From positions 7,807 through 71,806 of IMG/VR virus record IMGVR_UViG_3300044676_005314: DNA of 64,000 nucleotides; one strand, written 5' to 3'. How positions within the stretch are numbered: position 1 is the stretch's first letter; each line of letters starts with the position of its first letter. The notes under the pieces are model-generated. The model worked only from the letters and a program-made list of their open reading frames with translations. It made no database searches and had not been told where the DNA came from. Below are positions 11,984-61,899 of this stretch, piece by piece. Source of the stretch: a virus (Duplodnaviria; Caudoviricetes). The position numbers were made by a program, and so were the translations under genes.

Positions 11984-12078
11984 ATACTTTCAGACTACCG
12001 GCAGAATACAAGTAATACCTACCTACTCATATACCGTTGGTAGTCTGTGAGTATCTATTCGTGAGAATGAATAACTAG

Positions 12079-43799: not shown

Positions 43800-44129
43800 A
43801 TGGCAGTATATACAGCAGCAGAGTTGAATGCTAGCGAGACACTTGGTACTTCTGAAGCTGAAATTTTCAGCAATAGCAATAAAATAATTATCAAGCAAAT
43901 CTTATTAGCAAACTACACAGCTACTGATAGAACAGCACAGATTAAAGTTGTACCTTCAGGTGGAACTACAGGAGATGAGCATATCATTTTTGGAGATATT
44001 ACTGTGCCAGCTAACACAACCTCAGTTATTGACTTAGCAATGGTTGTAGCAGCAAGTGCGTCTATCAGAGGATTAGCTAGTGCAGCAAGCTCTATCAATG
44101 TACATATATCCGGTGTAGAGGTTAGTTAA
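43800..44129 (+). CDS. small beta-sandwich virion protein
   Basis: IIKQI.LAN....R and IN..ISG.E pattern. Confidence 0.6.
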   Translation: MAVYTAAELNASETLGTSEAEIFSNSNKIIIKQILLANYTATDRTAQIKVVPSGGTTGDEHIIFGDITVPANTTSVIDLAMVVAASASIRGLASAASSINVHISGVEVS

Positions 44130-45457
44130 TGGCTGAAATAGAGATACCAGAACCCCTGTTGTTAGACAGACTAGGGGGAGATGAAGTATACGGTTTTGGT
44201 CAAGACGGAGATGTAACAATCGCAGCTGATACCGTTCTTACTAGAGATATGTACTACAACGATTTAAATATTAATTCATCTTGTACATTAGACACAAATG
44301 GTTATCGTGTCTTCGTTAGAGGAACATTAGCTTTTACAGATGCTACTTCTCGTATTGGTAGGTTCACATCTAAAACAACAGCAGGAACACTTAAGGGTGG
44401 ATTTGCTAAGGGTGTAGATGCTACAGATACACTTGGTGGAGCTTCCGGTGAACAAGGTGGTTCCCACTCTTCCGGAGATGAATTCTTTAAAGGTGATAAC
44501 GAAATGTTTAACCTTACAGTAGCTTTATTAGGAAAAAAATTCGACCCTTCAGATAATACCACTAAGTTTATTGGTGGAGGTTCTGGAGGAGACGACGGAG
44601 CCATCACAGCAAATGAGGGAGCAGGTGCAGATGGTGGAGACTCGGGCTGGGGAGACTACCAAACAGTAGGAGCAGCTGGAGGTAAAGGGTCTTCTGGTAA
44701 CGCAGCAACACCGGGTTCAGGTGCTGTAGGTGGTGGAGTTGTATTAGTAATAGCTAAGACAATCACAGGTGAGGGAACAATTAGAGCTGATGGAGATGCT
44801 TCAACAGCAGCAACAGCAGGTAATGCTGGAACACCAGCACCAAACGCATCAACACCGGGAAATACAAACCCAACAAACTATGGTGCTAACAATCCTAGCC
44901 CTTACTCTTATTCTGGTAATAACTATTCTTACAATAACAGTGGTACTAACCCAACTAACTATGGTTCTAATCCACCAAGCCCCTACACAAACTATGGTTC
45001 TAATCCACATACACATTATCATTGGCATCCATCTCCTAACCCAATAAATAACTTTGCCAATGGTTTTTATCATTACCACTATGCACATTCACATCCATAT
45101 TCTTATAGTGGCAGTAATCCGGGGAACCCTTACTCTTATTCGGGTAATAATTATTCTTATACAAACTATGGCTCTAACCCAACTAACTATGGTGCTAATC
45201 CCGGTAATAACTACTCTTACCCGGGCAATACTAATCCAACAACACCTCATCCGGGTGGTGCAGGTGGTTCAGCAGGAACTGCTTCAGATGGATACAATGC
45301 TGGTGGTGGGACAGTAGTTTTAGTTACAGGAACAAAGCCGTTACCTTCTTTAACATTGGCGGCAGCAGCAGGAACTGGTGGAACTGGTTCTGCAAGTGCT
45401 GGCTCAGTAATTACAGTTTTCAATATAAACGCAGACGACACAGACCCGGGAGCATAA
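44129..45457 (+). CDS. Gly-rich fibre/adhesin with a Pro/Asn/Tyr/His repeat insert
   Basis: YG.G.DG.VTI...T.LTRDMYYN.L head shared with 45459; insert at about 44855-45245. Confidence 0.75.
   Translation: MAEIEIPEPLLLDRLGGDEVYGFGQDGDVTIAADTVLTRDMYYNDLNINSSCTLDTNGYRVFVRGTLAFTDATSRIGRFTSKTTAGTLKGGFAKGVDATDTLGGASGEQGGSHSSGDEFFKGDNEMFNLTVALLGKKFDPSDNTTKFIGGGSGGDDGAITANEGAGADGGDSGWGDYQTVGAAGGKGSSGNAATPGSGAVGGGVVLVIAKTITGEGTIRADGDASTAATAGNAGTPAPNASTPGNTNPTNYGANNPSPYSYSGNNYSYNNSGTNPTNYGSNPPSPYTNYGSNPHTHYHWHPSPNPINNFANGFYHYHYAHSHPYSYSGSNPGNPYSYSGNNYSYTNYGSNPTNYGANPGNNYSYPGNTNPTTPHPGGAGGSAGTASDGYNAGGGTVVLVTGTKPLPSLTLAAAAGTGGTGSASAGSVITVFNINADDTDPGA
44855..45245 (+). repeat. intragenic low-complexity repeats (NPTNYG, PYSYSGNNYSY) flanking HxH motifs
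   Basis: read directly from the translation. Confidence 0.9.
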
Positions 45458-45458
45458 T

Positions 45459-46118
45459 ATGGCAATAACAGAAATAGGGAAAATACCTTCAGACTTTGAA
45501 ACTTTTGATGTCATTCCGGATAGCATTTACGGTTCCGGTATGGATGGAAATGTGACTATATCAGCCAACACAACATTAACAAGAGATATGTATTATAACA
45601 ATTTAACGGTAGGTGCTGGTTACACATTAAATACAGCAGGATACAGGGTGTTTGTTAGAAATACATTGACTGGTGCAGGAACATCAGCAAATCAATCAGA
45701 TACAATAATTGGTCGAGTAGGTGCAGCATCCACTTCCGGGACACTTAGTGGTGGTGCTCAATCCGCAGCTACAGATTCTTTAGGTGGTAATGGAAATGGA
45801 TACACAGCTACTGAACCAGCAGAAGGTGCAGAATATTTTAATCATCCCGATATAGCAATAGATGGAGTGATTCAGCACGGTGGTTCCACAACTGCTACAG
45901 CTTTAGTAGGTGGAGCAGGAGACTCTGTCAACTATGGTGGTGGAGTTGTTGTAGTTTGTGCTAGAAAAATACAAGGATATGGAACATTTGAAGCTAGTGG
46001 GGAAACAACTACTGGTGGAGGAGTAATATTTATTGTTTCGCAAAATATACCGTTAACAGGTTTTGCAACAGATGTTACAGGATACGCAAGCGGGACCGTT
46101 AAGACATTTAAGGTGTAG
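45459..46118 (+). CDS. paralogue of 44129..45457 lacking the insert
   Basis: same N-terminal motif and C-terminal GGGVVV..A..I.G.GT..A.G. Confidence 0.75.
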   Translation: MAITEIGKIPSDFETFDVIPDSIYGSGMDGNVTISANTTLTRDMYYNNLTVGAGYTLNTAGYRVFVRNTLTGAGTSANQSDTIIGRVGAASTSGTLSGGAQSAATDSLGGNGNGYTATEPAEGAEYFNHPDIAIDGVIQHGGSTTATALVGGAGDSVNYGGGVVVVCARKIQGYGTFEASGETTTGGGVIFIVSQNIPLTGFATDVTGYASGTVKTFKV

Positions 46119-46120
46119 TA

Positions 46121-47023
46121 ATGAGTACACCATCATATATTCGTGTACACTTTAGTAAATTAGGTTCTGACATTGAACTCTATAAAATACATTATTTTTT
46201 AGGTATTTATAAACCCGATTTTACCAACCCATTATTTCCAGATTTTACAACTGATGTTGATTTACCAACATACCCAAGAAAAGAGATAGCATTTAATAGT
46301 GAGGGCTATGTTGATATCCCTATGAATAATTCTGATGTAGTAAGTTTTTATATATTAAGAAAAGACGGTTACTACGAATATAACGATGAAATATCTGGAG
46401 CAGAGAACTTAAAAACTGGTGCATTAGACCCTTTTAAGTATGAAACAGGATATTTATATACAATTGATAAAAGTTTAAATCCACAAAGTAATTTTTATAT
46501 AAAACAAAACAAACCATATCTATACAAAGATAATACTTATAACGAGTTATTAGCTATGGGTGTTTCTTTTGCAGTTACTGAGGGTGACTTAGATGATGAC
46601 GAAGATGAAAACACAAAGACTTATGGAGATAAATTTAGAATATTTTATGACTTTAAAAACTACGAAGAAATAGACGTTCCAGAAGAAGCATATATGACCC
46701 CTACTTTGTGGGGTGGTGACACTGAACCATCGCAGTTTACAATGCTATACTTAAGGGGTAAAACGTTTAATAATATAGGAGTAAACAATATGGACTTATC
46801 ATTAAGTGCAGAAGCTTTACAAACTCAAAAAGATGACGCAGTAGCAATGCTAGAAGGTGGCGTAGCTAATAGTCTTTTTAAATTAGGCGAAGACATAGCT
46901 GCTTTTGACGAAGCTGCTTTCTTGGCTGATGTAGATGCATATAAAGCTACCAAAGATGCTTCTTTGCATACTGTGATTGATTATATGAAAGTTTGTTTAG
47001 ATAATTTAGCAGCAATCGAATAA
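46121..47023 (+). CDS. hypothetical protein, possible internal start at 46790
   Basis: long ORF; AGGAG RBS before in-frame ATG 46790. Confidence 0.65.
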   Translation: MSTPSYIRVHFSKLGSDIELYKIHYFLGIYKPDFTNPLFPDFTTDVDLPTYPRKEIAFNSEGYVDIPMNNSDVVSFYILRKDGYYEYNDEISGAENLKTGALDPFKYETGYLYTIDKSLNPQSNFYIKQNKPYLYKDNTYNELLAMGVSFAVTEGDLDDDEDENTKTYGDKFRIFYDFKNYEEIDVPEEAYMTPTLWGGDTEPSQFTMLYLRGKTFNNIGVNNMDLSLSAEALQTQKDDAVAMLEGGVANSLFKLGEDIAAFDEAAFLADVDAYKATKDASLHTVIDYMKVCLDNLAAIE

Positions 47024-47040
47024 TTTTACGAGGAGGGTTC

Positions 47041-47514
47041 GTGCGAAAAATATTTTATGTCCCAAAAGAAGAAAATATTGATGAATATAAATCTCAATGG
47101 GAAAATGTTTATGCTGAAATCCAACACGGTATAAGTGAAAACACAAAAGATTTAATTAAAGATGTCGATAAAGCTGGTGAAGTTTCTATCCCTGAATATA
47201 GATTTCTTGAAGTACCGATAAATTTTTCTGATAAAGATTATGTACAATTTAATTATTGGGATGATTTTGAAGTAATCAAAAAAGATAAACCAGAAATTAT
47301 TTCTGAAATATATACAAATGATTTAGACAATCCAAGTTCTCAATCTGTATTGTTAAAAACATTACCTATGCATTATGTTGAAATAGGAAATCATTGGCAA
47401 TCAGATTTTTTAAAACTTGACATAGGTTGGTATGAAGTCGTTATAAAAGTAGATGGTATAGAAGTCGAAACTAAAGAAACTTCTGTATATGAATATTATT
47501 TTGAAGAAGAATAA
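47041..47514 (+). CDS. hypothetical protein
   Basis: GAGGAGG RBS before GTG. Confidence 0.7.
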   Translation: MRKIFYVPKEENIDEYKSQWENVYAEIQHGISENTKDLIKDVDKAGEVSIPEYRFLEVPINFSDKDYVQFNYWDDFEVIKKDKPEIISEIYTNDLDNPSSQSVLLKTLPMHYVEIGNHWQSDFLKLDIGWYEVVIKVDGIEVETKETSVYEYYFEEE

Positions 47515-48209
47515 TGCAAGAAAATATTTGGAAATCAGTACAACCAAAAATTTTAGCACCCGGAATAGTTGCTTTTGAAAAATGTATAGAAACATATTCA
47601 GAAGTTATAGATATTATGAATTCAGAAGTAGATGAATGGAAAAAATATAACGTAACACAAGATGGTCAAGGTTATGGTAAAGCAAATGGCCCTATAAGAT
47701 TTAGTCCTGAAAGTAATTTTAAAGCAAAAGAATCTATTTCATACTTTAAACAGGTGCAAAGAAATGCAATTGATAAAGCAGCATCATATATGCAAATATA
47801 TCCAGAAGTTGAAAGAGAAGTAAATTGGATGGAATCTTGGCAATATATATCTTATAGACCTCCTAAGCATATGGAATTTCATAGTGATAACCATTCTGTA
47901 AGAGATAAAAGAACAAATAAACATCATATAGCACCTTATTTGAGAAGATTTACTATCCTTACTTATATGAATGATAATTTTAAAGGAGGAGATTTATTGT
48001 TTAGGTATTTTCCAGAAATGGGTGCTTATAAAGCACCTGCTGGTACTTCAGTTATTATGCCTAGTGCGTTTGTATATTCACACGCAACAACTCCACTTTT
48101 AAATGGTAGAAAAACAGCTTTCCTAGTATCTTTTTCAAGTCACTATAACGTTGATGGAGAGATGGCAGGAGAACCTGTACAAGAATTAGCTAGAAGGGAA
48201 TTAAGATGA
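47514..48209 (+). CDS. 2OG-Fe(II) oxygenase, P4H-like
   Basis: FHSD...RRFTILTYMND.F.GG.L.F...P..F.YSH...P...G.K. Confidence 0.9.
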   Translation: MQENIWKSVQPKILAPGIVAFEKCIETYSEVIDIMNSEVDEWKKYNVTQDGQGYGKANGPIRFSPESNFKAKESISYFKQVQRNAIDKAASYMQIYPEVEREVNWMESWQYISYRPPKHMEFHSDNHSVRDKRTNKHHIAPYLRRFTILTYMNDNFKGGDLLFRYFPEMGAYKAPAGTSVIMPSAFVYSHATTPLLNGRKTAFLVSFSSHYNVDGEMAGEPVQELARRELR

Positions 48210-48886
48210 TAAAAAAAGCAGGAACTATACATATTTATGATGATTTTTTAACAGATGTGCAAGCTGAAGAAATTATAAAAACAACAGAGGAAATAGATAA
48301 CTCAAAATTAAAAATGGGTTATATAAGTGCAAAAGTTGGTAAAGGTCACGAAGGTGGAAATATAAGAAGCAATATGACTTTTAATTTAACTGAGCACGCA
48401 TTTACAGACCCGTCGTCTCGTGAATATAGAGAAGCAGTTAAAGCAGACTTGGATGATTACTATTTAAAATGTAAGCAAATTCAAGATTTAATTAGCAAAA
48501 AGTTGCAAGAATATGTAGGACTATATTGCGAAGAATACGAAATCCCTATACATTTTGACGAAGGTTTTACAATTCTCAGATATCAAGGTGGTCAAGAGTA
48601 CAAAAGTCATTGTGACTATGCACCTCACATACCTAGGTATTTATCAGCATTAATACTTCTAAACCCACAAGATTATGAAGGTGGTGGAACATACTTTGAA
48701 TATTTTGATGAAAATATTAAACCCGACAAACCATCACTAGTTTTATTTCCTAGTAACTATGCATACGCACATAGAGCTATGCCTGTAATTAAAGGAACTA
48801 AATATGCAATAGTGACTTGGTTGGGTCACGTTTTAGATTGGGATGGAATGCCCGTTATGTATACGCCACAAGGAGGACAGAAATAA
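48206..48886 (+). CDS. prolyl 4-hydroxylase-like 2OG-Fe(II) oxygenase
   Basis: YKSHCD...R.LSALILLN..YEGG.TYF...KP....VLFPS...AHRAMPVIKGTKYAIVTW. Confidence 0.92.
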   Translation: MIKKAGTIHIYDDFLTDVQAEEIIKTTEEIDNSKLKMGYISAKVGKGHEGGNIRSNMTFNLTEHAFTDPSSREYREAVKADLDDYYLKCKQIQDLISKKLQEYVGLYCEEYEIPIHFDEGFTILRYQGGQEYKSHCDYAPHIPRYLSALILLNPQDYEGGGTYFEYFDENIKPDKPSLVLFPSNYAYAHRAMPVIKGTKYAIVTWLGHVLDWDGMPVMYTPQGGQK

Positions 48887-49431
48887 TGGATGCTGTAAAA
48901 ATTACGGATTTATTCAAAGGTAATCAATTAGAAGAATTAAAGTATTTTCTGGATAATGAAAGTCCTTTTATTGACGAACATAACTGGAATAAAAAAATAA
49001 ATCATTATTTTAAAAGGTCCTATGAAATTGATGTTCTTGCAACTTATCTAATAGATAAAGCAAGAGAAGTTTTTGAAGTACATAATCTACTTCCAACAAT
49101 TTCAGGAATAAGATGGTATGAAGAGTCACCTCCAACAATAGAACACATAGATTTTGGGCCTGCACAATATAACATTTTGTATAACTATTATTCTGTAGAA
49201 CCTGTAACTATTACATACGATAATCACGAAATTGTATTAGAAAATGAAGAAGCATTAGCTTATTTTGGAGAATTTCCGCACTCAAGAAAAAAAACAGATG
49301 ACATATCAATATGTTTAAGTTTTGGGTTTAATACACCGGACAGTCCACACTTCGCTTTAGCAGAGTATAATGATAAAGGTAATTATGTTTATAAATCAGA
49401 TAAACCGGAGGTAGAAGTAGATTGGCTATAG
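48886..49431 (+). CDS. divergent 2OG-Fe(II) oxygenase (start revised)
   Basis: EHID...YNI...L....AL.YFG..PHSR; similar layout to 51784. Confidence 0.6.
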   Translation: MDAVKITDLFKGNQLEELKYFLDNESPFIDEHNWNKKINHYFKRSYEIDVLATYLIDKAREVFEVHNLLPTISGIRWYEESPPTIEHIDFGPAQYNILYNYYSVEPVTITYDNHEIVLENEEALAYFGEFPHSRKKTDDISICLSFGFNTPDSPHFALAEYNDKGNYVYKSDKPEVEVDWL

Positions 49432-50132
49432 TATCACAAGTTTTTAGATGTGGACCAACATTAGATTATGATGATTCTGATTGGTATGAATCTCGTGTTT
49501 CCGATTTAGGCCACATAAACCCTTCCTTAGAATTTTGGTTAAAAGATAACGCTTCTAGTTACACAAATGCCATTGTTATTGGTGCTGGATTCGGTTTGTC
49601 TTCTAAACAGTTAATAGATGCTGGTACTTCAGTTACTTCATTGGAACCTATAGCTTCTAGATTTGCTTTACTAGAAACAAATGTGCCAACAGGAACAAAT
49701 CTTAATAAAGGTGCTGGTGCGTTGCCGGGTACTGAAATTGTCTATTACAACAGTGATAACAAATCTGGAGCAGTAATTGATAAAGAAGTAGGTTTACAAT
49801 CTCAAGAAGTAGAAGTAATAACTATCGACAGCTTAGATTTATCACCAGATTTAATGATTATCTATGCCAATGGAAAAGAAATGGAAGTTTTAGATGGTGC
49901 TTCACAAACAATTGCAGACAACCCTAGTTGTAAAATAATAATAAGATGGGTTCCTGATAAATTTGAAAATATAGATACTGCTTACAATAAATTAACTTCA
50001 CTAGGGAAAACAATAGACATTATCCACTGGGAAGAAGACGGAGATGAAATTTCTGTTAAAAGACAACTTGATGGTATAAAACCAAATGATAATCTAAAAG
50101 CAGTTACAACAGCAGATTTACTATTGGAGTAG
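49422..50132 (+). CDS. FkbM-like methyltransferase fold, degenerate
   Basis: IVIGAGFG.SS, LEP......L..N, V.TIDSL...PD..I...G.E..VL.GA. Confidence 0.6.
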   Translation: MAIVSQVFRCGPTLDYDDSDWYESRVSDLGHINPSLEFWLKDNASSYTNAIVIGAGFGLSSKQLIDAGTSVTSLEPIASRFALLETNVPTGTNLNKGAGALPGTEIVYYNSDNKSGAVIDKEVGLQSQEVEVITIDSLDLSPDLMIIYANGKEMEVLDGASQTIADNPSCKIIIRWVPDKFENIDTAYNKLTSLGKTIDIIHWEEDGDEISVKRQLDGIKPNDNLKAVTTADLLLE

Positions 50133-50133
50133 T

Positions 50134-50961
50134 ATGAAAAAATGGTGGGAGACAAAAAAATACTCTAGAATATTAGAAAATAAAACTCATATTCTTGGAA
50201 AAGAAGAAGAAATACTATTTTTGGTTAATCCGGGCCACGCACACTATGTAGACTTAGCACCCGTAAAACCCTCAAAAGAATTTATGCCTGCTTGGTATAA
50301 AAATTTACAGAGAGAGTGGTCTTATATGAACGAAGCGGACCATTCTTGGAACACTATTCCATATAGAGATAACTCTGTAAAAAAATGCCCTACTGTCAAA
50401 GATATGATGTTTGCTGGTTACATAATACCTTTGTGGCTAGATTTAAGAATAGATTATAACGTACAAACTGGATTTAACTGGTATAACAAGCACGCTAATG
50501 AAGAAACTGTAACTTACCACGAACCAAGTTCTATAGGTTCTATGCCTATAAATGATAACTCTTTTAATACTGCACTAAAATTTACTAACCCTTGGGATAT
50601 TATTACCCCACCGGGTTGGTCTATATTAGTTACTTCACCTTGGTACCACAGAAATTGGGAAATAGAAATTATGCCGAGCATTGTAGAAACTGATAGTTAC
50701 CATCAAATGAATATACCTTTTTTATATCACGGTCAAGGTGAAAGAACATTTAGACAAGGTATGCCATTAATACAAATAATTCCTTTTAAAAGAGAAGGTT
50801 TTGATAACTTAGGTTATCAATCAAGAATTATGAATGAAGATGAAAAGCTTTATTACGATAAAAGTAGAGAGGCAGAACGAACCAAACAAAATGGATGGTA
50901 TCGATGGTTGACTCAACAAAATAAAAAAATATGGAAAAGAGATGGGATTATAGATGAATAA
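50134..50961 (+). CDS. DUF6065-like / DSBH-fold protein
   Basis: P.WYKNL, KKCP...D....GY.IPLW, KF.NPW...TPPGWS, P.IVETD. Confidence 0.65.
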   Translation: MKKWWETKKYSRILENKTHILGKEEEILFLVNPGHAHYVDLAPVKPSKEFMPAWYKNLQREWSYMNEADHSWNTIPYRDNSVKKCPTVKDMMFAGYIIPLWLDLRIDYNVQTGFNWYNKHANEETVTYHEPSSIGSMPINDNSFNTALKFTNPWDIITPPGWSILVTSPWYHRNWEIEIMPSIVETDSYHQMNIPFLYHGQGERTFRQGMPLIQIIPFKREGFDNLGYQSRIMNEDEKLYYDKSREAERTKQNGWYRWLTQQNKKIWKRDGIIDE

Positions 50962-51802
50962 ATGTCCAGTACCACAAAATTATAGATTAAAGATACCAAA
51001 GATTACTGATTTATGGAGTAAGAAGTTAAGTTCACTCAATAAAGATATGCCAACTGTAGCATTTACATTACCTCGTAAGAATTTAGAGTGGGGCCAAATG
51101 GAAAATAACGAAACTCAAAGTGAACAACCGGCTATTAATTTTAGAACACCTAGCAAGTTTGTTAAAGCACCTAATGGTTGCGTATCTACACAATTTATGA
51201 GACATAGAATGTATGAAATGTATTTTCCTTGGTCATATGTAAAACTTAAATTAAGAAAGAATACATTTGCTGATGAAGTAGATAGGTATGGTGGATATGA
51301 TGTTTCTGCAAGATTTACAGGCCTAGTAAAGCATCACGGACCATTTAATGATTTTATATTAGAAGAAAAAGAAGCTTGGGGAGACAGGGATACCCCTGTA
51401 ATGCAAATAACAATGCCTGTTATGTTGTTTACTGACGATGAAGAAGTTTGGATGGATGTTATACCCTCAGATAGAAACACAGGACAAAATTTGCCTATAT
51501 CTACTATTCCGGGATTTATGCCAATATATGCTTGGTCAAGAGGATTGTCTTGGGCTTTTGAATGGACAAACTTAGAACAAGATGAATGCATAATTAATCA
51601 CGATACAGTTATGTTTAACTTGTTATTCAGTAAGCCAGTCAAACTCAAATATGTAGAGTGGAATGAAACCTTTTCAAAACAATGGAATCAAATAGTTGGT
51701 TCAAGTGTAAATAGAAGAGATAGTAATATGCTTTATCCAGATATGCTTGATAGAAGACCAGATAAAGTAATGCCCAAGGAGAAATGGTGGAAGAAGCTTT
51801 AA
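50954..51802 (+). CDS. DUF6065-like protein (distant paralogue)
   Basis: V.IPG..PI..W.R.L.WAFEW pattern; cluster context. Confidence 0.5.
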   Translation: MNKCPVPQNYRLKIPKITDLWSKKLSSLNKDMPTVAFTLPRKNLEWGQMENNETQSEQPAINFRTPSKFVKAPNGCVSTQFMRHRMYEMYFPWSYVKLKLRKNTFADEVDRYGGYDVSARFTGLVKHHGPFNDFILEEKEAWGDRDTPVMQITMPVMLFTDDEEVWMDVIPSDRNTGQNLPISTIPGFMPIYAWSRGLSWAFEWTNLEQDECIINHDTVMFNLLFSKPVKLKYVEWNETFSKQWNQIVGSSVNRRDSNMLYPDMLDRRPDKVMPKEKWWKKL

Positions 51803-52362
51803 TACTCGATAATGTTTATCCTAAAAATATATTTGAAAGACTAGTAACCATTGCTAAGAGACAAGCCCATTTAGGGTTATATTCATCTGATTTTGGTAGA
51901 TTTGGTTTAACTTACGGTGATGAAGAAAGAAAAGATAGTGAAAACGCTAACTGGATAAGACAATTTAAACCCGTCCTTGTTCCTTTAGCTAGAGAAATAT
52001 TTAATTCTCCTAACCTAGAAGCATCTTATTCAATGTTTGCAGAATATAAATTAGTAGATGACAATATACCTAATTTACCAAAACACAAAGACAACAACGC
52101 TTGTACTTACACGATTGATGTTTGTTTATATCAAGAAACAGAACCTTGGGGTATTTGGATTGAAGGTAAAGAATATTTCTTAGAGCCTAATCAAGCAATT
52201 ATTATTTATGGCGAAGAACAAGAGCATTGGAGAGAAGAATTTCCGGACCCTAATAATAATAAAATAGGTATGATGTTTAATCACTATGTAGAGCCAGACC
52301 ACTGGTGGAACAATCCTGTACTTAATACAAGAGAAAAAAGACAAGCAGCGGGTTTAATTTGA
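51784..52362 (+). CDS. 2OG-Fe(II) oxygenase
   Basis: LPKHKDN.ACTYTI..CL....PW.IWIEG....L.P..A...GE..EHWRE. Confidence 0.85.
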   Translation: MVEEALILDNVYPKNIFERLVTIAKRQAHLGLYSSDFGRFGLTYGDEERKDSENANWIRQFKPVLVPLAREIFNSPNLEASYSMFAEYKLVDDNIPNLPKHKDNNACTYTIDVCLYQETEPWGIWIEGKEYFLEPNQAIIIYGEEQEHWREEFPDPNNNKIGMMFNHYVEPDHWWNNPVLNTREKRQAAGLI

Positions 52363-53108
52363 AATCTTTTAAAACACCAACTATAACTTTTAAAACACAA
52401 AATCCTGCACTCTTAGATTTAGAACCACCAATACCTGCAGCACAAGCAATACCCGAATGGTTTCAAAATCTAAATATGGATTTACCAAGACCCGACCATA
52501 AACCATTTCCAGTATTAGGAAAAATACTTAAGAAGTGGTCTTCACATACTATTAAAAAATGTCCAGCAGTAGTAGATTATTTTTCACAAGGATACATTAT
52601 TCCTATGTGGTGCGACTTTTTAATACAAAGACACGGTCAAGAGTTTTATTTTGAAACAAATGGCATACAAGATGGAATTGGAAGTGGTATCGAGTTTCAC
52701 GAAGAAGGACAATTTAAAACATATCCGTTTAAAAGAAATGATTACAGAAGAGCAGTAAAGTTTACAAGTCCTTGGTTCTTTCATACTCCACCGGGATGGT
52801 CTACCTTATTTATACAACCATTGATGCATCCACAAGATAATTACACATTATTTCCGGGAATTGTAGAAACAGATAGTTTTCATCAAGTTAATTTTCCTAG
52901 CATATGGCATACAGAAGGGGATAGAATCTTACAAAGGGGATACCCGTTTCTACACGTCATACCTTTTAAGAGAAGTAAAACAAAATTAAATATTGAAGAG
53001 TTCACACAACAAGACCATAAAGAAAATAATATTGAGTCATATAAACTTCGTAGCAAGATGACAGCAGGATATAGGGAGATAACACGACGAAATAGAAAGC
53101 TACAATAG
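52359..53108 (+). CDS. DUF6065-like protein, paralogue of 50134
   Basis: IPEWF..L, TIKKCPA..DY..QGYIIP.W.D, KF.SPW...TPPGWS, PGIVETD. Confidence 0.65.
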   Translation: MKSFKTPTITFKTQNPALLDLEPPIPAAQAIPEWFQNLNMDLPRPDHKPFPVLGKILKKWSSHTIKKCPAVVDYFSQGYIIPMWCDFLIQRHGQEFYFETNGIQDGIGSGIEFHEEGQFKTYPFKRNDYRRAVKFTSPWFFHTPPGWSTLFIQPLMHPQDNYTLFPGIVETDSFHQVNFPSIWHTEGDRILQRGYPFLHVIPFKRSKTKLNIEEFTQQDHKENNIESYKLRSKMTAGYREITRRNRKLQ

Positions 53109-53112
53109 TTAT

Positions 53113-53367
53113 ATGAAAGTGTGGATTGACCAAGATTTATGTACCGGTGATGGTCTTTGTGCAGAAATTTGTCCCGAAGTATTCACTATGTTGCCGGATG
53201 GATTAGCTTATGTGCAAGAACACACACCATATCCTAAAATATACGCTGCTTCACAAGGTAACCCCGAAGGTGCAGAAGGCACAGCAGTAGTTCCAATAGG
53301 TAAAGAAGAGTTGGTAAAAGAAGCTGCAGAAGAGTGTCCCGGCGAGTGCATTTTTATAAGTTTATAA
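53113..53367 (+). CDS. fdx: ferredoxin (single-cluster, actinobacterial type)
   Basis: MKVWIDQDLCTGDGLCAEICPEVF...EAAEECPGECI. Confidence 0.92.
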   Translation: MKVWIDQDLCTGDGLCAEICPEVFTMLPDGLAYVQEHTPYPKIYAASQGNPEGAEGTAVVPIGKEELVKEAAEECPGECIFISL

Positions 53368-53373
53368 TGGAGT

Positions 53374-53511: not shown

Positions 53512-53581
53512 AAAATAATACAAAACTGTCATACCTTGTATGTAAAATGCTATAATAGTATTAACGCGAACAAGGAGAGTA

Positions 53582-53794: not shown

Positions 53795-54048
53795 TGAATA
53801 AATTTGATGAGGCGTTAAATGCATTACACGCACAGAGGGTTCAGAAACTTAAAATAGATAAAATATTAGCAAAGCTCAATCGTGGTTCAGACGAAGAAAA
53901 AGAATATGCAAGTACTCTTGAAACTGCACTTTTAAATACTGCTTATAATAATCAGACAATTGTAGATGCTTTAAAATCAGTTGATATTGAAATATCTTTA
54001 TCTGCTGTTAGAGCTTGGAGGATGAAAAGAAATGACACAGAAGCCTAA
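53794..54048 (+). CDS. small HTH-like protein
   Basis: I..ALKS..I.ISLSAVR.WR pattern. Confidence 0.55.
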   Translation: MNKFDEALNALHAQRVQKLKIDKILAKLNRGSDEEKEYASTLETALLNTAYNNQTIVDALKSVDIEISLSAVRAWRMKRNDTEA

Positions 54049-55282: not shown

Positions 55283-55323
55283 TATAAAATAGACAATATA
55301 TAAATGTGTAGTACCATATACAT

Positions 55324-56115
55324 ATGGGATATTATTATTTACTAGATAATGAAAATCCATACGCGACAGTAAGAGAGAATAATAAGAAAGGGAACTACTA
55401 CCCATTTAGGGGGAGAGATATACAAGGAATAGTAGTTCACACTGCCGAAGGTGGCAGAGTTGCTAAAAATGTAGCAAAATACCTATCCGAAACAGAAAGA
55501 ACAGCGTCTGCACACGTCGTTGTAGATGATAAAAATATAGTTAATTTATTACCAGATGACTTTACTGCGTTCCACGTTAGAGGACATAACAGTAAATCTT
55601 TAGGATTAGAGTTAGCTTACTATGCTTCCGAATGGGGGCAAGACAAAGAATACGAAGATGCACTCATTACAACTGCGGCCAAGTGGGCTACAGATAAGTG
55701 TGAAGCGTATGAGATACCAGCAAGAAGATTAAATATCAACGAATGGTTAAAAGGTCAAAGAGGATTTATTTCTCACGCTGAACTCGACCCTGTAAGAAGA
55801 ACAGACCCGGGAATAAATTTTCCTTGGGAACAGTTTTTTACATTAATTAAAGGTAAAGCCTACAGAAAAGCACAGCGACAAGCACCAAAATGGAATGGTA
55901 GAATATTAGTGGTACAGTCACCGTACATCAAAGGAGATGATGTTTCTCAGTGGCAAGACTCTGCTGGAGGACTGACGGTTGACGGTATCTATGGAAGAAA
56001 TTCCGCTAAACGATGTAGGGAAATACAAAAATTAGCTGGGCTAGTTCAAGATGGTTTAGTCGGACCACAGACTTGGTACGCAACTTTTGGGCTTCCAGAG
56101 ATAACAGGAGAATAA
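55324..56115 (+). CDS. endolysin: amidase_2 plus peptidoglycan-binding domain
   Basis: GIVVHTAEG, SAHVVVD, AFHV, SLGLE, HAELDP.RRTDPG; DGIYG..S and DGLVGPQTW. Confidence 0.92.
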   Translation: MGYYYLLDNENPYATVRENNKKGNYYPFRGRDIQGIVVHTAEGGRVAKNVAKYLSETERTASAHVVVDDKNIVNLLPDDFTAFHVRGHNSKSLGLELAYYASEWGQDKEYEDALITTAAKWATDKCEAYEIPARRLNINEWLKGQRGFISHAELDPVRRTDPGINFPWEQFFTLIKGKAYRKAQRQAPKWNGRILVVQSPYIKGDDVSQWQDSAGGLTVDGIYGRNSAKRCREIQKLAGLVQDGLVGPQTWYATFGLPEITGE

Positions 56116-56116
56116 G

Positions 56117-56662
56117 ATGGAACTTGAAGTATTAAGAATAAGTTCACAAGCTGACTCTACAAACGGAATATTGTTCGATATCACTGATGGTGTTCGTAAA
56201 TTTCTTTGCTACACAATCGAAGATGAATTCAGAGCAGAAAAAATCAGAGGCGAAACAAGAATTCCAGAAGGTAAGTATAAACTTACTCTTCGTAAAGAAG
56301 GCGGTTATCACAATCGCTACACTGCAAAATATGGTGCTTGGCACCGTGGAATGATTTATGTAAATAATGTTCCAAATTTTGAGTGGATTTTATGGCACAC
56401 GGGAAATACCGACGAATCGACCGCCGGTTGTTTAATTTTGGGTTCTTCTCAAAACGAAAATATAACCAAAAAAGACGGCTTTGTCGGAGCGTCCGTTGTG
56501 GCATATAAAAAGGTTTACCCGGAAATTGCAGATGCAATAGAGTCGGGTGAAGAAGTCACAGTCAATTATGTTGATTATGACTACAGAGAAGGTGGAAAGT
56601 TTCTTTTACCATTGTCACCAAAAACTGGTGCTAGTGGTGGAGGAGTTAAAAAAATACTGTAG
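56117..56662 (+). CDS. DUF5675-family protein (putative cell-wall enzyme)
   Basis: T.G.L....FLCYTIED, RIPEG.Y.L, VPNF..IL.H.GNT...T.GCLILG. Confidence 0.8.
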   Translation: MELEVLRISSQADSTNGILFDITDGVRKFLCYTIEDEFRAEKIRGETRIPEGKYKLTLRKEGGYHNRYTAKYGAWHRGMIYVNNVPNFEWILWHTGNTDESTAGCLILGSSQNENITKKDGFVGASVVAYKKVYPEIADAIESGEEVTVNYVDYDYREGGKFLLPLSPKTGASGGGVKKIL

Positions 56663-56672
56663 GAGGTATTAA

Positions 56673-56885
56673 ATGCCAGATTACTGGAGAACAGCTCTAA
56701 TTAGAGCAGCAAGAACTGCAGCACAAACTTTTGTGGCTGTGATGATGGCTAACCAAGCTGGAATGTTCGAGGCAGATGTTATTATGGCTGCAAGCGTAGC
56801 AGCTGCATCAGCACTCGTTTCTGCAATTCAGAATGCATTAGAAGATGCACCATTCCCATTTATGTCTAAGATTCCTAAAGGATAG
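56673..56885 (+). CDS. holin, r1t-like
   Basis: W..A.IRA.RT.AQT..A, two TM segments. Confidence 0.8.
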   Translation: MPDYWRTALIRAARTAAQTFVAVMMANQAGMFEADVIMAASVAAASALVSAIQNALEDAPFPFMSKIPKG

Positions 56886-57019
56886 TCAAGATATAATCGG
56901 TTATAATAGATAGAGATGGTCGGGATATTACCCGACTATTTCTATTTATGGAGGTTATATAAATGATTTGTGGATTATGCAGCGGTGTTTGCTCAAATTG
57001 TCCTATTGGGTCAAAGTAA

Positions 57020-57280
57020 ATGACACAAAGGTTACAAGAAGGTTGGAGCCTGTATTTAAATATAGCTAAGAGAATATTAGCTGTGTTTATAGCACAAAGC
57101 CTATCAATATTAGGTGCCGGTTCGTTAGTAGGTATTGACGTATACCAATCTGCGTTGCTAGCTGGAATAATGGGGGTTGCACACGTCTTAGAGATGTTGG
57201 CAAGAAAATATATAGACGATGGAAAAATTACTTTAGAAGAAGTTAACGAGGTTTTCAATAGCGTTCCTACTAGAAAGTAG
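57020..57280 (+). CDS. second holin-like membrane protein
   Basis: two TM segments, DDGK.T.EE.N tail. Confidence 0.55.
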   Translation: MTQRLQEGWSLYLNIAKRILAVFIAQSLSILGAGSLVGIDVYQSALLAGIMGVAHVLEMLARKYIDDGKITLEEVNEVFNSVPTRK

Positions 57281-57283
57281 TAG

Positions 57284-60046
57284 ATGCTTAGGTCAATTAA
57301 TACATTTCTTAGATTAGCAATTGTTGGATTACTTATATATCCTTTACCTATTGCTATGGCTGACCACGTTCCAACACAACCACCTTATGGTACAAATGCT
57401 AGTGATGATGCTAACGCAGGAACTTTTACTATTGGTATATTAGGTTCAGATGGATTTGAAGATAGTCCACCAGAAAGTTATACAATATTCTTTAGTCAAT
57501 CTAGTGGTGTAACTGAAACAAATAGTTTTTGTGTCACTACTTCTTTTGGACATTCCACAAACACTTGGCAGTATCACACATTTAGTCTCGACAACTTAAA
57601 GTATTATTTTAATAACCCATCAGGAACAAATATTTATTATAGAGTTAGGTCTAACAACATAACTGATTACAGTTTTTCTACATTAACAGACCAAAATACT
57701 TGGAATTTATATGCAGGTACACCATTTGATTATAACCAAACAAATTGGTCTGCACCAACAGGAGATAATGCTTGTGATGACCCAAAGATACTTGATGGTA
57801 TAGGTGACCCAAGTAACTTAACTACTTCAGCTAATTTACACGATGGAAGTATAACTATTGACTGGGACGCAGCACCAGACAGATATGAATATAGTGCAGA
57901 ACGATACGCGATAGGTTTCGACAAAGCAAATCCACCTATGTATGGTGTAGCGACAGGTAATGTTGGCGATAGTAATGCTTTAAATACAGAATACACTTTT
58001 AGTAAGTCTTACTTAGAATCAGCTCTTAGTGCGACAGTTGGAGACACTATATACTTTAAAATAAGGTCAGACAACGATACAAACTCTAAATACTCTAATT
58101 GGACTTCTATAGCTAGTTATACGATACAAGATGTAGCTAGTGGTGTTACTAATTTATCTATTTCTAATACTGAGTATCAAGGTTTAGATTTTAGTTGGAC
58201 ACAACCCAATACAGGTTGGTCAGCAGTAGAGTCTTATAAAATTGAATATAAACTATCTAGCGAAGAAACATACACAAGTATTGATATTGCAGACGCTAGT
58301 GCTACTTCTTACACAATAGAAGACATAGCAGCAGGAACTTATGATTTTGTTGTTTATTCTTGCACACAGAGTGGTAGTTATTGTCACGGAGGTCAAGCAG
58401 GTCCAGTAACTAATTATGAAGTAGTATCTACTACTGCTACAACAACTATTGTTTATACTTTAGGACCACCTATGAATACTACTGCTACTAATGAATATAA
58501 CTCTGGTGTAAAAGTAGATTGGGAAGCACCTAATACAGGAAATGCAACTGCTGATACTTATGAACTATATTACAGAACAAGTCCTACAGATGAAGTAGTG
58601 ATTTACAATATAAGCAATACTGAATATACTATTCCTTATGCAAACATTTCTAATGGAACTTACACCTTTTCAATTAGAGCTTATGACTCTGTCAATAATG
58701 TTTATAGTGGTTACTCTACTGAGCCTACGCTAGCAGTATTCAATAAAAAAGCCCAAGATGACTCAGATGCAGCAGCCCAAGCAGCTTATGAAGCCGAACA
58801 AGCCCGTATAGCCGAAGAGGAGCGTAAAGCTGAGGAAGCTCGTAAGGCTGAGGAAGATAGAATAGCTAAAGAAAAAGCTGAGGAAGAAGCTCGTATTGAG
58901 GCAGAGCGTAAAGCTGAAGAAGAGCGTTTAGCTGAAGAAGAGCGTCTTCGTTTAAAAGAGGAAGCTAGAATCAAAGCTGAAAAAGAAGAGTTAGCTCGTC
59001 TCGAGGCTGAAGCAGAAGCTAAGATACAAGCTGAACTAGAAGCATCTATACTTAAAGATGTAGATACTGATAATTTATCAGACGATGAAAAAGAAGATTT
59101 AAAAGTATTAGTTGATACGATACAAGAGTTACAAGAAACATTAGAGGTTATTGAATATGAAGAAGAAATTTTTGAGTTGGAAGAAATTGTTATTGTTGCT
59201 CCTAGTACCACAACTACTACTACAACAACGCTCCCAATTAAAGAAGATTTTGCTGATGAAGAAACCGAACTTGATGAAGTGGAGATTGAGCCACTACCTA
59301 GTGAGGAAAGAGATACAGAGATACAACTTACAGAAGAAGAAGTAGAAATTCTCGTTGAGGAAACTGAAGAAGCTATCGCAGAAGTTATTACTATTGAGAT
59401 AGTAGAAGAGGAGCCTATCGATACCGAAGGTTTAACAGAGGAGGAAGTCGTTGAAGCAGAAGAAAAAGCTGACCAAGAGCTTACAGAAAAAGTTGAAGCA
59501 GCCGTTAAAGAATTACCTACAGAAGAAAAGGTTAAAGTTGTACAAGCCGTTGCAAAAACCAAGATACAGAACTTAGGTACTGCTGATAAAACTACACAAA
59601 AGGTAGTTCAAGCTGTTGTTAAAGAAGTAACTAAAGTCGAAACAGTTGCTACTTTATCTGAGGAACAAAAGACAGAAGTTGGTCAAGTATTAGGTTTTAC
59701 CGAAGAAGAGGCCTCTGAAGACCTTACAATCATTGCAGAACAAGCATCTAAAGATGAGAATACAGCACAAGCATTAGACGAGTTTGTTGAAAGGTCAATT
59801 GCAAGTTCTGATGTAGAAAACTTTACACTTGCTGATGTAGTTACAGAGGTACAAATAGAGGCGTTTATCAGCGACCCTATAGGTGCTATAATAGATGTAG
59901 ATTTAGAAAGTATTGACTTTGCGACTATAGGTCAAGATATGACCCAAGACCAAAGGCAAAAATCTAAAGAAGTAGTAGTTCCAGTGATTATTGCTTCGCA
60001 AATAGTTGCACAGGCAGGTGCACTCATAACTAGGAGACCATTTTGA
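57284..60046 (+). CDS. large membrane-anchored/exported protein with FN3-like repeats, E/A/R coiled coil and acidic stalk
   Basis: N-terminal signal, W..P...Y...Y repeats, AEEER coil, hydrophobic C-terminus VVVPVIIASQIV. Confidence 0.8.
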   Translation: MLRSINTFLRLAIVGLLIYPLPIAMADHVPTQPPYGTNASDDANAGTFTIGILGSDGFEDSPPESYTIFFSQSSGVTETNSFCVTTSFGHSTNTWQYHTFSLDNLKYYFNNPSGTNIYYRVRSNNITDYSFSTLTDQNTWNLYAGTPFDYNQTNWSAPTGDNACDDPKILDGIGDPSNLTTSANLHDGSITIDWDAAPDRYEYSAERYAIGFDKANPPMYGVATGNVGDSNALNTEYTFSKSYLESALSATVGDTIYFKIRSDNDTNSKYSNWTSIASYTIQDVASGVTNLSISNTEYQGLDFSWTQPNTGWSAVESYKIEYKLSSEETYTSIDIADASATSYTIEDIAAGTYDFVVYSCTQSGSYCHGGQAGPVTNYEVVSTTATTTIVYTLGPPMNTTATNEYNSGVKVDWEAPNTGNATADTYELYYRTSPTDEVVIYNISNTEYTIPYANISNGTYTFSIRAYDSVNNVYSGYSTEPTLAVFNKKAQDDSDAAAQAAYEAEQARIAEEERKAEEARKAEEDRIAKEKAEEEARIEAERKAEEERLAEEERLRLKEEARIKAEKEELARLEAEAEAKIQAELEASILKDVDTDNLSDDEKEDLKVLVDTIQELQETLEVIEYEEEIFELEEIVIVAPSTTTTTTTTLPIKEDFADEETELDEVEIEPLPSEERDTEIQLTEEEVEILVEETEEAIAEVITIEIVEEEPIDTEGLTEEEVVEAEEKADQELTEKVEAAVKELPTEEKVKVVQAVAKTKIQNLGTADKTTQKVVQAVVKEVTKVETVATLSEEQKTEVGQVLGFTEEEASEDLTIIAEQASKDENTAQALDEFVERSIASSDVENFTLADVVTEVQIEAFISDPIGAIIDVDLESIDFATIGQDMTQDQRQKSKEVVVPVIIASQIVAQAGALITRRPF

Positions 60047-60240
60047 AAGTAATTAAAAAAATGGTGGGAGTAGGCGACTGGATTATTGACGTTATAAAAG
60101 AGTCAATAGCACAGATTTTCACCCTCCTTGGGTTTTACATTGCTTGGTTCACATTGACCGGAACCGCCCAAGACATAGTAGGTATAGCAATAGTTATATC
60201 TACGGTAATATGGCTTTTAACAATAAGACTTAGAGATTAA
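60043..60240 (+). CDS. small two-TM membrane protein
   Basis: TTGA overlap, hydrophobic. Confidence 0.65.
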   Translation: MKVIKKMVGVGDWIIDVIKESIAQIFTLLGFYIAWFTLTGTAQDIVGIAIVISTVIWLLTIRLRD

Positions 60241-60342
60241 GGTATAATAAAGTATGTGTTATATAAATCAAAAAGAAGATGGTTCATTCATACAGATATG
60301 CAATTGCAAGTATGGTAGTGAGCATTGTGAGGATAGAAACTA

Positions 60343-60534
60343 ATGTCTAGTTCAAGTAATAGTAATGGTTTAACACAAAAAGAAATGTTGATGATGGTTT
60401 TAGAAGGACAGGAAAAAATTAATGAGCGTATTGACTCGCTCCACGAAAAAGTCAACGCAAAGATTTCAAGACAGGAACTCGCAGGATGGGTTGTCGTTGT
60501 AGGCACACTCTCCGCACTATCAACTCAAATGTAA
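60343..60534 (+). CDS. coiled coil plus C-terminal TM protein
   Basis: sequence pattern. Confidence 0.6.
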   Translation: MSSSSNSNGLTQKEMLMMVLEGQEKINERIDSLHEKVNAKISRQELAGWVVVVGTLSALSTQM

Positions 60535-60558
60535 TCAGTCGCCTCGAAAGGAGGTATT

Positions 60559-60699
60559 ATGACAGAAATCATATTAGTATTAACAGTCTCACTTATATCT
60601 ATTGGTCTTCTTATATGGGTAGGTGTAATGAGCAACAAATTTTTTAAGTATTTTAAAGAGATAGCACAGGAAATTTATAATGAGCAGAAAAAAAATTAA
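60559..60699 (+). CDS. 46-aa single-TM protein
   Basis: AAGGAGG RBS; hand translation. Confidence 0.6.
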   Translation: MTEIILVLTVSLISIGLLIWVGVMSNKFFKYFKEIAQEIYNEQKKN

Positions 60700-60853
60700 T
60701 AGATGTGATGAGTGTAAACAGCCACTCAAACACATACAGACAAATCAATGGATGTGTGACCAATCACCAAGTAATTGTATATTATCGTTAAAAATTTTGT
60801 TTTTAAACAACCCGGAAGATGAAGAAGAATGAGCCAATGGATAATTATGTTAT

Positions 60854-61039
60854 TTGCAGTTACGTTGCTTTATGTATCTGCTTATATTGGTTCTTCAAAA
60901 TGATGCAGGAGTGAGTCCTCCTTGCCCCATATGTCAGTCAGTTCTATTCGAAAGACACGCAGGACTTTACTGCTATAATGCAAAGTGTCCAGCATTTAGC
61001 CAAAAAGTAGTGGCTTGTTGTGAAGGAGGGGCGTGTTAA
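60854..61039 (+). CDS. small zinc-ribbon protein (start uncertain)
   Basis: CPIC...C..AKCP...CCEG. Confidence 0.55.
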   Translation: MQLRCFMYLLILVLQNDAGVSPPCPICQSVLFERHAGLYCYNAKCPAFSQKVVACCEGGAC

Positions 61040-61899
61040 AAACAATATTTGTAAAAATACCATCATTAGATGATAAAGAGTTAGTACCTACATTAAAAGA
61101 TTGCTTAAACAAAGCAGAGCATCCAGAAAGAGTTTATATAGCCGTATCTTTAATTTATAAAGATAGAAAAAGCTTAGACGAATTAATGATTTTTAAATCT
61201 CAATATGCAAACGCAAATGTAAAAATAGTTACTAGAGAGTTTGATATAAATTATATGGGTGTAGGCAAACAGCGAAAATTGGTTGGTGATATGTATGATA
61301 GTCAAGATTATGTATTGCAAATAGATTCTCATACTTGGTTTTGTAAGAATTGGGATACTAAACTTATAGACCTACACGATGGTGATGACAAAACAATTCT
61401 TACAGCTTACGCAGGGCAATATGGTTATGTAGATGGAATTAGAAAACCAATTGGAGATGGTAAGTTTAGATACACAACAATAGTAGAAGGTGATAGACAG
61501 TTCACACAGTTTACAGATGCTTGGGTAGATGAACCTATATACGATGATGATAGAGAATTTATACCTATCTCTAAGTTTTGTGCAAATTTTGCTTTTGGTA
61601 CTAAAGAGTGGGCTTTAAAAACAGGTTTAGTAGCTGAGTCAATTTTTTGGAGTGAAGAGCCTTTGCAAACAGAATATCTTAAAATAAATAAATTTAATTT
61701 ATTATATCCAAATATAGATGAACCAATTATATGTCATTTATATGCTCAACACATAACAGAGCAAAGTAGAAGAGAACCTTACACAAATTACCTAACAGTA
61801 GAGGAACACGAATATTTAGACCATTACGATAGTGAGGTGTATCACGGGCATATGAACCGAATAAAAAACTATACGCATATACAAGAATCTAGGAGGTGA
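61033..61899 (+). CDS. Gnt1/GT60-like glycosyltransferase (hydroxyproline O-GlcNAc transferase family)
   Basis: IFV.I.S.DD.EL..T.......A..PE.VYI.V; Y.LQIDSH..F..NWD..LI; NF.FG, EE and I.HLY motifs. Confidence 0.85.
   Translation: MLKTIFVKIPSLDDKELVPTLKDCLNKAEHPERVYIAVSLIYKDRKSLDELMIFKSQYANANVKIVTREFDINYMGVGKQRKLVGDMYDSQDYVLQIDSHTWFCKNWDTKLIDLHDGDDKTILTAYAGQYGYVDGIRKPIGDGKFRYTTIVEGDRQFTQFTDAWVDEPIYDDDREFIPISKFCANFAFGTKEWALKTGLVAESIFWSEEPLQTEYLKINKFNLLYPNIDEPIICHLYAQHITEQSRREPYTNYLTVEEHEYLDHYDSEVYHGHMNRIKNYTHIQESRR

Follow-up and report, generated by a model that had tools for sequence, protein, structure and literature searches.

The window analysed here is a 64-kb stretch of a 71.8-kb IMG/VR virus record (IMGVR_UViG_3300044676_005314, positions 7,807 to 71,806), which CheckV rates as complete. 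Its G+C content is low. It encodes a large terminase, a portal, a protease, an HK97-type capsid protein, a tape measure and large tail proteins; its source is therefore, judged from gene content, an uncultured siphovirus-type tailed phage. No close cultured phage was found, and a megablast search of the gene block described here against 50,697 phage records gave no match. At the end of the tail module, the gene of a fibre-like protein (44129; genes are named by their first nucleotide in the window) opens a block of 13 genes, 44129 to 53367, in which neighbouring open reading frames (ORFs) abut or overlap. The block encodes 2-oxoglutarate (2OG)/Fe(II) oxygenases, two DUF6065 proteins, an FkbM-like methyltransferase and a ferredoxin, and a glycosyltransferase (GT) gene, 61033, lies downstream of it (Table 1). 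An original prediction had proposed that the phage hydroxylates prolines of its own fibre and links GlcNAc to them. We suggest, tentatively and at a little under an even chance, that the block and the GT form a module in which hydroxylation and glycosylation are coupled, with the insert of 44129 as the most likely substrate. Gene content, synteny and folds carry this proposal, and the enzymatic steps are deduced from them.

The protein 44129 gave no Pfam or PHROG match. Its conserved terminal parts enclose a low-complexity insert of 132 residues (residues 243–374, nt 44855–45250) composed of N30 Y22 P20 S18 G14 T11 H9 plus a few A, F, W and I, with neither lysine nor any charged residue. Its units are NP(T/S)NYG, SNPTNYG-type repeats and PYSYSG. 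The X-Pro-Gly repeats or Gly-X-Y periodicity of a collagen-type substrate were not found in it, nor were PAPK-type repeats, and Tandem Repeats Finder detected only weak repeats in its DNA. The orthologous inserts of L009 and L004 (such labels denote loci fetched for comparison) consist mainly of YSYG and NYGSN around a conserved His-rich centre and have fewer prolines. Because of this, the description "Pro/Asn-rich fibre" in the original prediction fits the window phage only. The centre of the insert (45005–45094, residues ~293–322) is a His cluster, HTHYHWH...YHYHYAHSH, which L004 and L009 have conserved, whereas the repeats on either side of it differ. This may reflect metal binding where the insert turns.

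Two of the oxygenases, 47514 and 48206, carry the HxD...H iron triad and a lysine ten residues after the distal histidine, as do their orthologues in L009, L074 and L084. The protein 48206 contains HRAMPVIKGTKYAIVTW and 47514 contains HATTPLLNGRK. The motif strings that had been quoted for these two proteins and for 61033 are all in the sequences, but those said to be at the gene ends lie near the C-termini rather than at the ends. The profile check of PF13640 bears out the assignment of 48206; 47514 scores slightly below the cut-off of 27 bits, but is paralogous to 48206 (BLASTP 7e-8), and its orthologues are flagged as PF13640. Further matches of 48206 are phrog_61 (4e-31) and, in a PDB sequence search, 3dkq (1.3e-6) and the prolyl 4-hydroxylase (P4H) of Bacillus anthracis (3itq/5hv0, 3e-6), with whose motif its H..PV.KG.K aligns. 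The HxD...H...K spacing is common to 48206, the B. anthracis enzyme, the P4H of chlorovirus PBCV-1 (5c5t) and PKHD-type enzymes (3dkq, PiuC), at low identities from which the substrate cannot be deduced. The PF13640 clade, as seen in the PDB matches of 48206, also includes lysyl hydroxylases and PKHD enzymes of unknown substrate.

A coupled run of oxygenase-type genes behind the fibre, as originally described, is thus present, but the block holds more than these two: 48886 and 51784 are additional oxygenase-type genes, and the two DUF6065 genes, the methyltransferase and the ferredoxin had gone unmentioned. The first was listed as an ORF with a TTG start at 48817; its likely true start is the ATG at 48886, behind AGGAGG. 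From their sequences, 48886 is probably a further double-stranded beta-helix oxygenase and 51784 is probably oxygenase-like. For this pair the Atlas gave structural leads to PF13640 clusters; one of them, given here as a lead only, connects 51784 with a viral cluster that is 72% PF13640 (template modelling (TM) score 0.75). In hhalign comparisons with the PF13640 alignment neither protein showed significant similarity, and the assignment rests on the HxD...H motif, the PHROG match and the Atlas lead.

The GT 61033 contains IFVKIPSLDDKELVPT and LQIDSHTWFCKNWD. It scores well above the PF11397 cut-off of 21 bits, as the original prediction expected, with only profile positions 1–41 and 95–169 of 352 aligned, and PF11397 is carried by 38/38 near-length homologues. 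The DxH motif (D98, H100) and H235 are invariant in 27 homologues. Its AlphaFold2 model has a GT-A fold at a mean predicted local distance difference test (pLDDT) of 94.8. Nearly all of the best PDB folds for this model are polypeptide GalNAc-transferases (best E 5e-11, TM 0.66), and the nearest BFVD models are proteins of uncultured Caudovirales named "Glycosyltransferase, GlcNAc". PDB sequence searches with the protein and with its profile found no match to any solved structure. No second GT was detected in the genome. Together with the model, this favours a protein acceptor and the transfer of a single sugar. Among the phage records searched, distant relatives of 61033 were found only in two Xanthomonas jumbo phages, where the neighbouring carbamoyl transferase and NUDIX genes are uninformative.

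The DUF6065 model has a dUTPase/dCTP deaminase fold (Foldseek top match 2zdc, E 5e-4). A VIA search placed 22 chains of this superfamily at the top with Z 9.3–5.0, followed by scores of 4.6 and 3.3, and by eye two segments, PPGWS and GIVETD, resemble dUTPase motifs II and III. Unlike the superfamily, the model has helices in place of the C-terminal P-loop-like motif V, and two to four paralogues stand beside a protein GT. The Pfam dUTPase model matched 1/34 DUF6065 members, at E 0.14, and a PDB sequence search with the DUF6065 profile gave no match. The fold may point to a role in binding a uridine or cytidine nucleotide. In relatives, it is copy 52359 that stands next to the GT or the ferredoxin. 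Homologues of DUF6065 also occur in cultured haloarchaeal viruses and cyanophages: Halorubrum virus HRTV-2 (L094, 4809–5681) has one beside thymidylate synthase and PolB, and cyanophage S-RIM4 (L095, 3818–4612) one beside ribonucleotide reductase; both are without a PF11397 GT. The S-CREM1 record labels its homologue a triphosphate nucleotidohydrolase.

The ferredoxin gene adjoins the GT in three arrangements, in L009 (6407–6670), L074 (9814–10086) and L039–42 (L042, 9608–9856). More generally, a Cys-rich metalloprotein travels with the GT: Fer4_15 in the window's lineage, and in distant phages a DUF6171 protein (CxxC...CxxCGC...CPxGKW) encoded after the GT (L011, 10983–11246), which is fused to the GT in L045 (9971–11419). 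The BFVD match at rank 47, A0A6J5M7M7, is a 787-aa "Methyltransferase FkbM" of an uncultured Caudovirales member and contains a GT-A domain similar to 61033. This hints that the FkbM-like protein 49422 may act on the sugar. For 46121, a weak PUD match was obtained with the L009 orthologue only. The possibility that 50954 is DUF6065-like came from an Atlas lead to DUF6065 clusters; hhalign did not confirm it, and it remains a lead.

Table 1. Genes of the block, the gene just upstream of it and the glycosyltransferase, with positions in the window
Feature	Position	Strand	Evidence
Small protein, 109 aa, just upstream of the fibre-like gene	43800..44129	+	Orthologues 71% identical in L009/L010
Fibre-like protein, 442 aa, proposed substrate	44129..45457	+	At end of tail module; insert between conserved N- and C-terminal parts
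Paralogue of the fibre-like protein, 219 aa, without insert	45459..46118	+	BLASTP 6e-21 to 44129
Block protein, 300 aa	46121..47023	+	Orthologues 40% identical, same position in L004 and L009
Block protein, 157 aa	47041..47514	+	Orthologues 37-39% identical, same position
2OG/Fe(II) oxygenase 1	47514..48209	+	HSD...H...GRK, Lys at +10; PF13640 25.2 bits; paralogue of 48206
2OG/Fe(II) oxygenase 2, P4H/PKHD type	48206..48886	+	HCD...H..PV.KG.K; PF13640 53.4 bits, E 5e-14
Protein with HID...H, 181 aa	48886..49431	+	hhalign 96.9% to 51784 family
FkbM-like methyltransferase	49422..50132	+	TIGR01444 27.6 bits (below cut-off 37.7); phrog_8156 1e-10
DUF6065 protein, paralogue A	50134..50961	+	PF19541 28.8 bits; phrog_7084 7e-51; 31% identical to 52359
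Protein of 282 aa, best-conserved block gene	50954..51802	+	72-74% identity in L004/L009
Protein with HKD...H, 192 aa, paralogue of 48886	51784..52362	+	phrog_2954 6e-11; hhalign
DUF6065 protein, paralogue B	52359..53108	+	phrog_7084 1e-55; AlphaFold2 model pLDDT 84.5
Small single-cluster ferredoxin	53113..53367	+	Fer4_15 68 bits
GT-A glycosyltransferase, Pfam family GlcNAc (CAZy GT60 type)	61033..61899	+	PF11397 63.1 bits, E 4e-17

The block is syntenic from fibre to ferredoxin in L004, L009 and L010 at 37–84% identity, and the GTs of these contigs are 40–41% identical to 61033. The GT lies about 100 bp from the ferredoxin gene in L010 and L004 and 360 bp from it in L009, on the opposite strand. 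In L074 it is inside the block, between DUF6065 and ferredoxin and on the same strand, and in L039–42 the ferredoxin gene has been relocated together with the GT. Every block-bearing contig that reaches far enough contains the GT, and in the window's lineage the oxygenases and the GT are never apart. The distance of 8 kb between them, entered as a caveat in the original prediction, is real (7.7 kb), but relatives have the GT at various places beside or inside the block, so that the window layout is one of the ways in which the same set of genes is arranged. Thus the GT 61033 belongs with the block despite its distance in the window. As the GT is part of the block in relatives, the phage may well hydroxylate and sugar-coat its own fibre.

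In the window, the genes between the block and the GT include a lysis cassette at 55324–56885. It encodes an endolysin with Amidase_2 and PG_binding_1 domains, a DUF5675 protein and a 70-aa ORF, to which an r1t-type holin corresponds in relatives. A 920-aa protein follows (57284–60046). It has a hydrophobic N-terminal segment and a hydrophobic C-terminal tail, and it also contains fn3 domains, a long acidic coiled region and a run of poly-Thr. The next gene, 60043–60240, encodes a membrane-like protein of 65 aa, and the pair is conserved throughout the window's lineage. Positions 1–12800 of the window and the first 7.9 kb of the record (L096) together make up about 20 kb of mostly very small ORFs.

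To follow the gene set beyond this lineage, an IMG/VR profile scan yielded 80 GT loci, or 88 with the loci fetched earlier. Clustered at 70% GT identity, these give 45 groups, of which 14 belong to the window's lineage and the other 31 are here called distant. DUF6065 is encoded within 1 kb of the GT in 23/31 distant groups and within 8 kb in 26/31. A protein family, f394, occurs within 8 kb in 20/31, usually just upstream of DUF6065, and a family of about 120 aa, f121, in 18/31. Myovirus-type contigs usually have the order fibre, f394, DUF6065, f121, DUF6065, GT and the Cys-rich DUF6171 protein. Between its conserved ends, an f394 protein holds a hypervariable insert with much Tyr, Asn, Ser, Thr and Gly, often also Cys, an architecture that it shares with 44129. 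A fibre-neighbour protein with such an insert stands just upstream of the DUF6065-GT pair in those 20 distant groups. Comparison by hhalign found no homology of 44129, its flanks included, or of 45459 to f394, nor of 46121 or 47041 to f394 or f121, and f394 has no relative in cultured phages. Weak relatives of 43800 (E 1e-5 to 1e-7) are encoded 2–3 kb upstream of distant DUF6065-GT pairs in L062, L067, L069, L076 and L079.

PF13640-like genes are found within 8 kb of the GT in six of the distant groups (L052, L083, L084, L088, L090 and L093), with Pfam confirmation in L052, L084 and L090. In L083 the three genes are adjacent in the order DUF6065-2OG-GT; L093 has its 2OG gene inside the module, one DUF6065 gene ahead of the GT. 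From these shared layouts, what recurs is a triad of GT, DUF6065 and a low-complexity protein next to the fibre, to which P4H-type oxygenases are a facultative but recurrent addition. The pair of families also occurs fused. More than 40 of 120 listed long GT homologues (~950–2,060 aa) join PF11397 to PF13640 or PF13661, often together with peroxiredoxin and GT2 domains, and those with a source name come from metagenome-assembled genomes of Alphaproteobacteria or Rickettsiales. Three of the PF11397-PF13640 fusions were rechecked by hmmscan. Examples such as P0165, P0265 and P0270 (in the series P0165–P0284) contain several PF11397 domains and an AhpC-TSA peroxiredoxin, and JGI names the fused proteins "Tpa1-like". 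Judged by domain content, these fusions suggest that the same chemistry operates in Alphaproteobacteria. The predicted co-occurrence of P4H-type and GT60-type genes is therefore real and recurrent, in the window's lineage, in the fusions and in six distant groups. At the level of the gene pair, which uncultured phages and bacteria carry widely, the view that such a pathway belongs to eukaryotes only does not hold.

The following course of events is proposed. The module would be expressed with the late genes and modify a protein. The 2OG/Fe(II) oxygenases, two of the P4H/PKHD type with lysine at the 2OG position and two more divergent HxD...H proteins, would hydroxylate side chains of the 44129 insert, and by family analogy the proline of SNPTNYG-type repeats would be the likeliest target. 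The Mn-dependent, polypeptide-GalNAc-transferase-like GT60 enzyme 61033 would then put an N-acetylhexosamine (HexNAc) from a UDP-sugar on new or existing hydroxyls, and the FkbM-like enzyme could methylate the sugar or a side chain. The ferredoxin may keep the catalytic iron reduced or work directly with the GT. The dUTPase-fold DUF6065 proteins would handle a uridine nucleotide, by removing UDP or by binding the UDP-sugar. The fibre tip would thereby become hydrophilic and glycosylated, and this would bear on stability, adsorption or shielding.

Eukaryotes and their giant viruses are known to glycosylate proteins in a hydroxylation-dependent manner. In the Skp1 pathway of Dictyostelium and Toxoplasma, which glycosylates hydroxyproline, the prolyl 4-hydroxylase PhyA acts first and then Gnt1 (CAZy GT60). 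The phage genes belong to the same Pfam families, PF13640 and PF11397, and likewise encode cytoplasmic soluble enzymes; the order hydroxylation then HexNAc transfer is plausible for them, and their coupling is seen in synteny and fusions. The phage system differs in that it has no Skp1 and, with one GT only, no extension transferases, and its GT aligns to about one third of the Pfam profile. DUF6065, the methyltransferase and the ferredoxin are extra, and the acceptor residue is putative. Collagen hydroxylysine glycosylation (LH3, COLGALT1) and Mimivirus L230 also place a 2OG oxygenase before a GT on a repetitive structural protein, and LH3 and COLGALT1 are among the weaker matches of 48206 and 61033; the GT family is another one, and the insert of 44129 has neither lysine nor collagen repeats. 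Mimivirus L230 does show that hydroxylation-glycosylation occurs on virion fibres, and PBCV-1 sets a precedent among viruses for a P4H whose targets are Pro-rich repeats of the virus itself. In mycobacteriophages, phage GTs decorate the phage's own structural proteins, as proposed here, with other GT families and targets and no hydroxylase or dUTPase-fold partner. To our knowledge, phage virion glycosylation has so far been shown only there. Literature searches on DUF6065, on GT60 in phages and on P4H or hydroxyproline in phages found no description of such a phage module.

Several observations weigh against coupled modification of the insert, and most of all against proline as its target. The proline fraction of the insert is 0.13 in the window (by the scan criterion) and 0.06–0.11 in the window's lineage, but it is 0.03–0.05 in three distant 2OG-bearing loci and 0.01–0.08 in loci without a 2OG gene. 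Proline content shows no clear relation to the presence of 2OG genes, with the window's lineage counted as one event, and what the inserts have in common is Tyr, Asn, Ser, Thr, Gly and often Cys, not proline. The position of the 2OG-binding lysine is occupied by arginine or degenerate in the oxygenases of distant modules, and the best PDB sequence match of 48206, 3dkq, is a PKHD-type hydroxylase of unknown substrate with arginine at this position. The pairing of the GT with PF13640 is also uneven. The two never part within the window's lineage, and many bacterial proteins fuse them, but 25/31 distant groups have no PF13640 gene within 8 kb; the GT therefore generally needs no hydroxylase, and its near-universal partner is DUF6065, not P4H. 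In addition, 61033 is far from the block in the window and may be its own transcription unit there, for which the evidence is weak; a promoter and terminator scan gave no excess over shuffles. The position behind fibre genes is also where phages keep accessory genes, and the company of DUF6065 in cultured viruses points to nucleotide chemistry. Hydroxyproline as the sugar anchor is accordingly unlikely; it is conceivable for the window's lineage, but not as the common denominator. A hydroxyproline acceptor, as originally predicted, is not supported, given the few prolines of most related inserts and the distant groups without a nearby PF13640 gene, and of that interpretation as a whole the protein O-glycosyltransferase-like model and the low-complexity, fibre-like upstream neighbour stand.

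CAZy GT60 itself includes Ser/Thr-specific enzymes, for example that of Trypanosoma cruzi, so the family is not hydroxyproline-specific and membership in it does not by itself imply hydroxyproline (PMC6939170). This leads to the alternative that survives best, a mucin-type O-glycosylation without hydroxylation, which we consider somewhat unlikely. The GT and DUF6065 would put HexNAc on Ser/Thr (or Tyr) of the insert, and the oxygenases, methyltransferase and ferredoxin would be independent add-ons acting on Asn, His, Tyr or other proteins. It agrees with the best structural matches of 61033, which are Ser/Thr polypeptide GalNAc-transferases, and with the distant groups that lack a nearby PF13640 gene, most of which retain DUF6065 and a Ser/Thr/Tyr-rich neighbour. 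The mucin-type enzymes (GT27 polypeptide GalNAc-transferases and the GT60 polypeptide alpha-GlcNAc-transferase of T. cruzi) share with 61033 the GT-A fold, the DxH and distal His, and presumably a Ser/Thr-rich low-complexity acceptor. The phage enzyme differs from them in that it has no lectin domain, has no sequence match to the solved structures and acts in the bacterial cytoplasm. Against independent add-ons stand the bacterial fusions, which argue for coupled action, the placement of the 2OG genes inside the modules of L083 and L093, and the constant company of oxygenases and GT in the window's lineage.

Bacterial and eukaryotic PHD/Tpa1-type hydroxylases act on translation factors or ribosomal proteins. 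The substrate might accordingly be not the fibre but host proteins of these kinds, or another phage protein such as 57284, a Thr-rich fn3 membrane protein; we regard this as distinctly improbable. Among solved structures, that of a PKHD/YbiX-type enzyme comes nearest to 48206, and the bacterial fusions are named "Tpa1-like". The orthologues of 57284 have Thr-rich stretches with 41–48% Thr (L025, L074), which therefore offer an alternative mucin-like acceptor for the GT encoded about 1 kb downstream of 57284 in the window. However, the distant GT loci hold no relative of 57284 but do have low-complexity fibre neighbours, and the block is packed directly behind the late tail genes, not among early genes.

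The dUTPase-fold proteins, oxygenases and GT could also make hydroxylated, glycosylated pyrimidines, as in base J or glucosyl-hydroxymethylcytosine. The fold of DUF6065 and its neighbours in HRTV-2 and S-RIM4 speak for such a modification of nucleotides or DNA, but it is very unlikely. The oxygenases belong to PF13640 and not to Tet/JBP, for which only L052 gave a match, below threshold, and the GT model matches protein transferases. A search of the genome found neither thymidylate synthase nor a family-A DNA polymerase, and the early region showed no large replication ORFs or polymerase-sized gene. The module is also consistently beside fibre genes. That these are auxiliary metabolic or small-molecule genes without a link to the virion, as in cyanophages, where nearly all of the 208 phage records with distant relatives of 48206 are found, annotated only as 2OG-Fe(II) oxygenase, is hardly credible in view of the tight, conserved 13-gene operon behind a fibre gene, the linked GT with its protein-GT fold and the recurring low-complexity neighbours.

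A broader form of our proposal, that coupled hydroxylation and glycosylation act on the fibre insert, can be stated, although it is doubtful. Tailed phages of several unrelated morphotypes would share a GT60-type system, obligately associated with DUF6065, that O-glycosylates hypervariable, low-complexity fibre tips, and in the window's lineage the sugar would sit on hydroxyproline made by the phage's P4H-type enzymes. Such a system would be the prokaryotic-virus counterpart, and possibly the evolutionary source, of the protist Skp1 pathway.

If the module acts as proposed, host recognition and virion stability would come under post-translational influence through a gene set that is widespread in aquatic phages. 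DUF6065 and DUF6171 would gain their first functional context, and the dUTPase-fold DUF6065 would be a new kind of UDP-handling partner of a GT. The compact, soluble P4H-like and polypeptide HexNAc-transferase enzymes, active in the bacterial cytoplasm, would be useful for making hydroxylated or glycosylated repeat proteins.

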